From assembly GCA_964401485.1 (NCBI GenBank), contig CAYNYL010000005.1:8158-72157 (forward strand): a stretch of 64,000 nucleotides of DNA, read 5' to 3'. The notes under the pieces were generated by a model, which saw only the letters and a list, made by a program, of their open reading frames with translations, was not told the origin of the DNA and ran no database searches. The DNA is from an uncultured Gammaproteobacteria bacterium. Lineage in GTDB: Bacteria; Patescibacteriota; Patescibacteriia; UBA9934. Positions 50,239-64,000 of this stretch are shown here, one piece after another (the first letter of the stretch is position 1; each line of letters starts with the position of its first letter). The position numbers and the translations under genes were made by a program.

Positions 50239-50315
50239 CGGGTCGTAGCTCAGTAGGCTAGAGCGCTTGGTTTGGGACCAAGAGGTCGCGAGTTCGAGCC
50301 CCGCCGACCCGACCA
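50239..50315 (+). tRNA. tRNA-Pro (anticodon TGG)
   Basis: Acceptor CGGGTCG/CGACCCG, anticodon stem CTTGG/CCAAG with loop ttTGGga, and CCA. Confidence 0.85.
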
Positions 50316-50332
50316 GAACTTTTTATGTTGAC

Positions 50333-50408
50333 GGGCCTGTAGCTCAGTTGGTAGAGCGCTACATTCGCATTGTAGAGGTCAGGAGTTCGACTCTCCTCAG
50401 GTCCACCA
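50333..50408 (+). tRNA. tRNA-Ala (anticodon CGC)
   Basis: Acceptor GGGCCTG/CAGGTCC with the G3:U70 Ala identity pair. Anticodon loop ttCGCat. CCA. Confidence 0.85.
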
Positions 50409-50418
50409 GAGGACATGC

Positions 50419-50494
50419 GGGCCCATAGCTCAGTTGGTAGAGCGCTTCCATGGCATGGAAGAGGTCAGCGGTTCGAACCCGCTTGGGTCCACCA
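50419..50494 (+). tRNA. tRNA-Ala (anticodon GGC)
   Basis: Acceptor GGGCCCA/TGGGTCC with G3:U70. Anticodon loop atGGCat. CCA. Confidence 0.85.
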
Positions 50495-50512
50495 AGGATC
50501 ACTATTCGGCAT

Positions 50513-50588
<76 letters not shown>

Positions 50589-51587: not shown

Positions 51588-53078
<1,491 letters not shown>

Positions 53079-53193
53079 CATATATAGTTTATAACCCGAA
53101 GGTTATAGCTCTGCTTAAATAGACGTTGCAATCACACAGTTGTCAATTCTTTCTGTAGAGCCAATTTGGCTCGTTTTTAATGACCACGGGGGC

Positions 53194-62541: not shown

Positions 62542-63234
62542 TCAGAGCGTACGGTACTCTCGTTCCAGTTTAGCGAGGAGTTCTTTACACCTGTTCAGGT
62601 CGTGGGAGTTGAACGCGTGAGCGAGGCTGTGGTGTGACCGTTTCACTACGCACACGAGAAAGGTTGTTGCGTGGACGCGGCGATTAGTGTCTGGTGGACG
62701 AGCGTGCAGTAGCCAGTTCACCCACCATAGAACGGCGCGAGGAGCGCGGTAAGCGCCGTGATCGATTAGGTGTCGCAGGTCGTCCTCTACCTGCTCGTCG
62801 TCCATGAATCCAATGGGTCCGCCTTCCCAGATGTTTAACTGCGTGTGCGCTACAATGATTTGCCGTGCACGTTCCGAGAGTCGTTGCGCAGCCGAAATTG
62901 CGACGAAACTACTAAGGATGCACTTTTGAGGGTTCACCTTAGCCCAGTACGCCGCGCTGCGTTCAAAAGTGTAGGCACGAAGAGCGAGGGGAGCGTTTGT
63001 TTGCCCTGCCACGAGGTCGCTGAGCTCGTTGCGATACCGCTTCTTCTTTCCTGTGACCTGAAACCTTAGTTCAGTAGCGAGCAGAGCATCCCAGCCGTCT
63101 GGTTCGATCCATCGTTCGCTTAGATCCGTCATGTACTCCTTTACCTCATCGGTGGTTACGCCATCAAATCCCGCGAGGTAGAGTTCATAGCGCAAAATTT
63201 GTGAATCATCGGTTAACCGCGTTGTCATGGACAC
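62542..63234 (-). CDS. Hypothetical protein (230 aa), moderately GC-elevated
   Basis: A clean ORF with an ATG start. No family recognised. Local GC is about 57%. Confidence 0.5.
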   Translation of the reverse strand: MSMTTRLTDDSQILRYELYLAGFDGVTTDEVKEYMTDLSERWIEPDGWDALLATELRFQVTGKKKRYRNELSDLVAGQTNAPLALRAYTFERSAAYWAKVNPQKCILSSFVAISAAQRLSERARQIIVAHTQLNIWEGGPIGFMDDEQVEDDLRHLIDHGAYRAPRAVLWWVNWLLHARPPDTNRRVHATTFLVCVVKRSHHSLAHAFNSHDLNRCKELLAKLEREYRTL

Positions 63235-63345: not shown

Positions 63346-63380
63346 TTGACAAGCTAGCAGTCGAAATAGTAGACTGCTAA
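63346..63380 (+). promoter_or_regulatory. Putative clpP promoter (TTGACA at 63346-63351) overlapped by a CIRCE-like inverted repeat TAGCAGTC-N9-GACTGCTA
   Basis: Read directly in the sequence. Compare the CIRCE consensus TTAGCACTC-N9-GAGTGCTAA. Confidence 0.5.
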
Positions 63381-63405
63381 TATAGTCATGCTATACTACT
63401 AATCT

Positions 63406-64000
63406 ATGTCGCAAGAGCTACACAATTCTATTTTGATCCCAACCGTTATTGAAAAGACGAGTTATGGGGAGCGGGCCTACGATATTTACTCCCGTTTGCT
63501 CAAGGATCGAATCATTTTCCTTGGAACGGCGATTGACGACCATGTCGCGAACGCGATTATCGCGCAGCTTCTTTTCCTTGAGAGCCAGGATAGCGAAAAA
63601 GATATTAAAATCTATATTAACTCGCCGGGAGGATCGGTGACGGCTGGGCTCGCGATCTACGATACGATGCAATATATTAAGCCGGATGTTTCGACGATTT
63701 GTGTCGGAATGGCGGCGTCGATGGGGGCGGTGCTCCTTGCTTCGGGAGCGAAAGGGAAGCGATTTGCTCTTCCAAACGCGGAAATCATGATCCACCAAGT
63801 CCTTGGAGGAGTCCAAGGGCAGGCAACGGATATTAAAATCCACGCCGAGCGCATTCTTAAGATGAAGGAGTCCCTCAACCAGATTCTTTCAAACCACACC
63901 GGTGTTCCGATTTCGAAGGTAACCGACGATACGGAGCGAGATAATTTCATGGATGCGAAGGACGCGAAGCGCTACGGCTTAATCGATAAAGTCATTACGA
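63406..64000 (+). CDS. clpP: ATP-dependent Clp protease proteolytic subunit, 5' partial at the window end
   Basis: [28 protein letters not shown]...[15 protein letters not shown] gives the catalytic Ser-His context. The ORF runs off the window. Confidence 0.9.

Follow-up and report, generated by a model that had tools for sequence, protein, structure and literature searches.

We identified, upstream of clpP in a 64,000-nucleotide stretch of DNA from a Patescibacteria/Uhrbacteria-like bacterium (the window, by which we mean this whole stretch), a palindrome that is very probably a CIRCE operator built into the clpP core promoter, at which HrcA would repress clpP by occlusion and from which heat would relieve it. 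The site exists and is non-random, and a clade of close relatives has kept both the site and the geometry of its promoter at clpP. We infer in addition that hrcA is present in this genome, that HrcA binds the site, and that clpP is repressed by it and induced by heat.

A CIRCE-like palindrome upstream of clpP

Read 5' to 3', the region comprises TTGACA, AGC, TAGCAGTC, GAAATAGTA, GACTGCTA, A, a further 25 nt and the clpP start codon (ATG 63406; Table 1). The segment TAGCAGTC-N9-GACTGCTA (63355-63379) forms a perfect 8-N9-8 inverted repeat. The palindrome of the original prediction is accordingly present, although not as the 9-N9-9 repeat that had been described, as the outer ninth pair (C63354/A63380) is non-complementary; A63380 itself agrees with the CIRCE consensus.

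The closeness to CIRCE that had been suggested for this palindrome was confirmed by direct comparison. Against the consensus TTAGCACTC-N9-GAGTGCTAA, 15 of the 18 specified bases are matched, with three mismatches and a spacer of exactly 9 nt, and when the position at which the two arms carry a G/C swap is set to C or G, the match rises to 17 of 18 bases, with a single mismatch. The reduced HrcA core TAGCA-N15-TGCTAA, which is quoted in the literature (PMC8762339), is matched exactly at the clpP site, and this is its single occurrence.

Short palindromes are common, and a chance palindrome without function might be proposed on that ground, although nothing else favours it. The palindrome was found once in the 64-kb window, where 0.08 matches were expected by chance with up to three mismatches allowed, and 100 shuffles yielded zero matches to the CIRCE consensus as good as the clpP site (chance expectation per window, 0.00). 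The site is moreover conserved in all seven groups of relatives considered below, and we give an origin by chance next to no credence. No second site with four or fewer mismatches (C/G allowed) was found in the window and the 10 kb downstream of it (74 kb, the 10 kb beyond the window being taken from a Logan contig), and an Rfam scan of the window gave no family match at the palindrome.

Table 1. Features of the clpP upstream region, with positions in the window, and the sites found before clpP in relatives.
Feature	Position	Strand	Sequence	Basis or remark
Probable CIRCE operator, 27 nt	63354..63380	.	CTAGCAGTC-GAAATAGTA-GACTGCTAA	consensus match and conservation in relatives
Left arm	63355-63362		TAGCAGTC	direct reading
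Spacer, 9 nt	63363-63371		GAAATAGTA	direct reading
Right arm	63372-63379		GACTGCTA	direct reading
-35 hexamer, predicted clpP promoter	63346..63351	+	TTGACA	promoter scan
-10 hexamer, predicted	63370..63375	+	TAGACT	promoter scan, 10/12 promoter matches; 18 nt after -35
Possible second promoter element, extended -10	63389..63397	+	TGcTATACT	promoter scan and direct reading
clpP coding sequence, ATG 63406, past window end	63406..64000	+		Pfam CLP_protease, E 2.7e-87
Divergent 228-aa ORF, neighbour outside the module	62542..63228	-		no Pfam/NCBIfam match
clpP site, L207 (ClpP 97%)			CTAGCAGTC-N9-GACTGCTAA	same as window
clpP site, L208 and L224 (ClpP 97-100%)			CTGGCAGAC-N9-GACTGCTAA	
clpP site, L214 (ClpP 86%)			TTAGCAGTC-N9-GACTGCTAA	0 mismatches
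clpP site, L216 (ClpP 84%)			TTAGCACTC-N9-GACTGCTAA	0 mismatches, hybrid arms
clpP site, L215, Uhrbacteria GCA_002795965.1 (ClpP 83%)			TTGGCACTC-N9-GACTGCTAG	
clpP site, L212 and L213, Uhrbacteria (ClpP 85%)			TTGGCAATC-N9-GACTGCTAG	
clpP site, L209-L211, GCA_023246145.1 (ClpP 88%)			TTTGCACTC-N9-GTCTGCTAA	

Architecture of the predicted clpP promoter

It had been proposed that the palindrome overlaps both elements of the clpP promoter, and this holds for the -10 only. The palindrome begins 3 nt past TTGACA, leaving the -35 hexamer free; from there it fills the 18-nt spacer between the two elements of the predicted promoter and takes in the candidate -10, TAGACT. The loop contributes its final two bases (TA) to this hexamer and the right CIRCE arm its initial four (GACT), such that a loop ending in TA is what completes the -10. 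A position on, or just downstream of, a vegetative promoter is that of a CIRCE operator, and this is where the site lies relative to the predicted promoter.

Transcription from the TAGACT promoter is predicted to start near 63382, giving a 5' UTR of about 23 nt without a Shine-Dalgarno sequence. A second promoter element, the extended -10 TGcTATACT, is of uncertain status: it is separated from the clpP ATG by 8 nt, would yield a leaderless transcript, and is kept only in the relatives with 97-100% ClpP identity. CIRCE also covers the -35 region of this element, so that HrcA would hinder transcription from it too. The complete ClpP protein, as read from Logan contigs L124 and L220, has 199 aa. 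We additionally noted that a Shine-Dalgarno sequence is absent before clpP in the window and in every relative examined, and the translation of clpP may be leaderless or Shine-Dalgarno-independent.

The predicted start site also bears on the proposal that the inverted repeat is an RNA hairpin of the 5' leader, acting on mRNA stability or translation, and no DNA operator. As the start at about 63382 lies downstream of the repeat, the repeat would not be transcribed; furthermore, the promoter scan found no upstream promoter, no T-tract follows the repeat, and it has no match in Rfam. The 25-nt repeat does fold to -11 kcal/mol as RNA, and CIRCE sequences in B. subtilis mRNA leaders are reported to affect transcript stability, but we consider a hairpin function highly improbable. 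A reading of the repeat as a terminator was also rejected, with no T-tract following it and the neighbouring gene being divergent.

The G/C-swapped arms in other genomes

The two arms of the clpP site depart symmetrically, at one position each, from the textbook consensus, and no hrcA was found in this organism's window and the adjacent 10 kb. Either observation could be taken to favour a different dimeric repressor, the resemblance of whose operator to CIRCE would be coincidental. With each species represented by a single genome (GTDB representatives), a scan for the exact pattern TAGCAGTC-N9-GACTGCTA recovered at least 120 loci. Among the matches listed, 104 of 120 lay no more than 300 bp upstream of the start of a heat-shock gene, with GroES (50), HrcA (23), RpoH (11), HtpG (7), ClpB (5), FmdB-like (4), Hsp20 (2) and GroEL (2) as the genes concerned. 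An NCBIfam check covered the RpoH, HtpG, ClpB, GroES, HrcA and FmdB-like reference proteins and confirmed the first five, the FmdB-like match being weak. Nearly all of the matches listed extend to tTAGCAGTC...GACTGCTAa, which corresponds to the full CIRCE ends, left unspecified in the search pattern. Patescibacteria were represented among the matches listed by hrcA of Uhrbacteria (L027, L037, L064), by hrcA and groES of Paceibacterota, and by groES of Saccharibacteria, Gottesmanbacteria and Falkowbacteria; clpP was the neighbour of the exact variant in none of the 120 matches listed.

The occurrence of the same arms before both hrcA and groES among the matches listed, in many phyla, is the signature of an autoregulated HrcA regulon. 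Since the exact arms also stand at other heat-shock genes, the swap is a common natural variant of CIRCE, and no different regulator is called for. The swap leaves the reduced core TAGCA-N15-TGCTAA intact, and the clpP site fits this core. In addition, clpP of L216 and L215 has hybrid sites in which a C-type arm is paired with a G-type arm, showing that the swapped position is simply degenerate. Judged by the genes that it adjoins, among them the undisputed HrcA-regulon genes hrcA and groES, the exact G/C-swapped variant counts as a genuine CIRCE, in use in many phyla, Uhrbacteria among them. The symmetric swap in each arm that had been described is hence real, but it does not mark the site as that of another repressor; this alternative, which the original prediction had allowed for, is not favoured, and we regard it as very unlikely.

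We made two further observations on the regulon of the G-variant. At 11 of the loci among the matches listed, rpoH (sigma-32; NCBIfam 428 bits) follows the variant at a distance of 3-30 nt, mostly in Xanthomonadales/Lysobacterales (Stenotrophomonas, Pseudoxanthomonas and Lysobacterales; L018, L029, L039, L042, L060, L074, L076, L087 and others), which implies a putative control of RpoH, the sigma factor of the heat-shock response, by HrcA in these orders. It also adjoins small FmdB-like zinc-ribbon genes (MPTYVYKF...; L082 4251, L102 5107, L111 1070 and L114 4692) in Actinomycetota- and Chloroflexota-type MAGs; these genes have a weak match to TIGR02605 (E 4e-4) and may represent an unrecognised member of the HrcA regulon. 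When the literature was searched for the variant 9-mer TTAGCAGTC, the matches listed were all unrelated and of primer type.

Conservation of the site at clpP of relatives

The closest named homologues of the window ClpP were found in Candidatus Uhrbacteria and the "Patescibacteria group", at 81-85% identity. We compared seven ClpP clusters, with 83-100% ClpP identity to the window, and in every one of them clpP is preceded by a CIRCE-like site (0-3 mismatches; Table 1). By a rough estimate, such a site would arise by chance in a 200-bp upstream region at about 2e-4 per locus. The window and six of the seven clusters (L207, L208, L214, L215, L216 and L212) also have a promoter module in common, in which a -35 TTGACN (TTGAAA in L212) stands 0-2 nt before the 9-mer, CIRCE fills a spacer of 16-18 nt, and the -10 is TAGACT. 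The arms are kept among these relatives, whereas loop and flanking sequences have diverged and the ATG follows at a variable distance (11-137 nt). L207 still has CIRCE at clpP, although another neighbour lies upstream there.

Outside these clusters, the 80 metagenome clpP loci with 66-80% identity contained no site with three or fewer mismatches within approximately 3 kb, and the 350 bp before clpP had none even when up to four were allowed. Conservation at clpP of relatives, which the original prediction had proposed looking up, is complete in the near clusters (7/7) and nil in the more distant loci (0/80). Given this absence at 66-80% ClpP identity, CIRCE at clpP is confined to a narrow clade; clpP is a clade-restricted target, and function is not to be assumed from wide conservation.

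The narrowness of the clade could be a sign that CIRCE survives at clpP only as a remnant, neutral or in decay, with clpP transcribed constitutively, perhaps from the extended -10 TGcTATACT that lies downstream. The presence of this second promoter-like element downstream of the operator would agree with such a history, as would the degraded left arms of L208/L224 (CTGGCAGAC) and L212 (TTGGCAATC); weakened sites with 2-3 mismatches were found in L208/L224, L212 and L209. Nonetheless, the palindrome is perfect in the window, and the sites of two relatives (84-86% ClpP identity) show zero mismatches despite wholly diverged loops and flanks, indicating purifying selection. The operator would also allow HrcA to hinder both promoters, as it spans the -35 region belonging to the downstream candidate. 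A remnant is for these reasons unlikely, and a functioning CIRCE operator within the clpP promoter is the reading that we retain. Heat-shock control of clpP by HrcA through a CIRCE-type operator, as first predicted, is supported by comparison with other genomes, both through the heat-shock genes at 104 of the 120 matches listed and through the sites in seven of seven groups of relatives.

Strains with 97-100% ClpP identity carry two alleles of the promoter, one with the left arm CTAGCAGTC (window 63354-63380) and one with the weakened CTGGCAGAC (L208 196-222; L224 about 430-456), the right arm and the -35 being the same in both.

HrcA in the lineage

No homologues of hrcA, groES or groEL were detected in the window and the adjacent 10 kb by tblastn with heat-shock references (a reference set that had no dnaK), where only clpP matched. 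One candidate for the HrcA of this organism, P0159, was rejected because it belongs to another genome. At the level of the lineage, hrcA and a related palindrome at chaperone promoters, the absence of which was to count against the original prediction, are both present. We found in L217 an hrcA-grpE-hsp20-dnaK-dnaJ operon whose ATG lies 2 nt past a canonical CIRCE of the C type, indicating that C-type and G-type arms coexist in the group. The hrcA gene of L064 (Uhrbacteria) is preceded by TTGACG-aa-TTAGCAGTC-tccaatgTA-GACTGCTAA-tc-ATG, which is the cassette found at clpP, and that of L027 (Uhrbacteria) has the TA+GACT arrangement of the -10 seen at clpP, with no -35 identified.

The HrcA proteins of Uhrbacteria and other Patescibacteria (L064 2875-3558, L027, L037, L033, L063 and L120) are of a short form, with about 217-242 aa (~227 in this lineage) compared to about 340, and we identified 3495 homologues of the short HrcA of Uhrbacteria. 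The short form retains the N-terminal winged helix and a C-terminal GPxRMxY segment, and lacks approximately 110 central residues. Against the full-length HrcA equivalog model TIGR00331 (338 positions), the L064 protein scored 140 bits, below the cutoff of 197, with its best stretch at model positions 1-122, and it is still assigned to Pfam PF01628; it is thus a short-form homologue and not a canonical equivalog. Many copies of the short HrcA bear the name 'hypothetical protein' in NCBI records.

Genomic surroundings of clpP

Other genes of the window, read from the translations of its open reading frames, include dnaA, dnaN, tig, pnp, polA, recA, rpoBC and efp. Identical copies of the locus were found only in metagenome assemblies (Logan SRR13355620-22, ENA ERZ15185638 and NCBI GCA_020049755.1). 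The divergent 228-aa ORF next to the clpP promoter is missing from L207 (97% ClpP identity), where a DHH gene directly abuts the promoter, and it looks like a strain-specific insertion. We additionally identified a complete 16S rRNA gene (51589-53085, minus strand) that has neither a 23S nor a 5S gene beside it, with tRNA clusters nearby (50239-50588).

Approximately 4 kb downstream of clpP lies an hsp20 gene (L124 5388-5753; L220 6986-7351), syntenic with VanW in all relatives examined, and no CIRCE was found at this hsp20. A different hsp20 occurs in L217, inside the CIRCE-controlled hrcA-grpE-hsp20-dnaK operon.

Proposed mechanism and its relation to known systems

We propose that the operator fills the spacer of a sigma-70-type promoter, with its right arm supplying four of the six bases of the -10. 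At normal temperature, a bound HrcA dimer would cover both the spacer and the -10 and exclude RNA polymerase, keeping the transcription of clpP low. When unfolded proteins accumulate, HrcA would lose its activity and the promoter would be freed, and the ClpP protease would then be made together with the chaperones. In the models developed for Bacillus and Chlamydia, GroEL keeps HrcA active, and HrcA is inactivated when GroEL is titrated. Heat or unfolded protein inactivates HrcA according to the same models, such that the promoter is derepressed (PMC8762339).

Somewhat more speculatively, a clade of Uhrbacteria might have extended its HrcA regulon to ClpP by means of a compact promoter-operator cassette, its -10 composed of the end of the CIRCE loop and the right arm, that also drives hrcA, with a minimal repressor of ~227 aa from which some 110 central residues are missing; control by GroEL might then be different in such reduced genomes, or one repressor might serve the chaperones and the protease alike. 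We hold this fuller scenario to be possible but doubtful.

We know of nothing established experimentally on stress regulation in bacteria of the candidate phyla radiation, and a full-text literature search for HrcA together with Patescibacteria returned nothing relevant. The prediction made here is that, in one Uhrbacteria clade, a single conserved repressor-operator pair links the synthesis of the main cytoplasmic protease to the heat-shock response of the chaperones. The G/C-swapped CIRCE is, as far as its genomic neighbourhoods can tell, a widespread functional variant, and motif models that fix the swapped position would miss real HrcA sites. Beyond the target and the lineage, the mechanism is a textbook one: it is an ordinary mechanism with an unusual target gene, and represents a new target and a new lineage for a well-known operator. 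The fusion of promoter and operator and the short form of HrcA are further, modest extras.

The system resembles the class I regulation by HrcA and CIRCE of B. subtilis dnaK and groESL, and of Chlamydia, Caulobacter and Geobacter, in its 9-N9-9 architecture with TAGCA...TGCTAA cores, in the location of the site on or just after a vegetative promoter, and in the use of the same variant arms at hrcA and groES. Both the CIRCE consensus and the mechanism of HrcA have been described for such systems (PMC545781; PMC8762339). It differs from them in its target, as clpP is not a usual member of the regulon. The content of the HrcA regulon is known to vary, with groESL as its sole constant member and rpoH, for instance, as a target in Geobacter (PMC545781). 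Further differences are that the operator forms part of the promoter spacer and of the -10 and does not lie downstream of the start site, that its arms carry G/C where the consensus has C/G, and that HrcA in this lineage has about 227 aa, against the usual length of about 340 aa.

For clpP itself there is a direct precedent. Chastanet and Msadek reportedly found in 2003 that clpP of Streptococcus salivarius is dually regulated by CtsR and HrcA, with a CIRCE in its promoter, and both cases would therefore place a protease within the HrcA regulon. S. salivarius is a Firmicute and has an additional CtsR operator, unlike the Patescibacteria/Uhrbacteria-like bacterium studied here, where, on direct reading of the sequence before clpP, we noticed no direct repeat of the CtsR type. 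Elsewhere clpP is regulated by CtsR in Firmicutes, through a heptad direct repeat, by ClgR in Actinobacteria, through a short GC-rich palindrome, and from sigma-32 promoters in Proteobacteria. In delta-proteobacteria, sigma-32 promoters have been reported upstream of clpP (PMC545781). CtsR, ClgR and sigma-32 thus share the same goal, the induction of ClpP under stress, through signals that are, by description, unlike the CIRCE site identified here.
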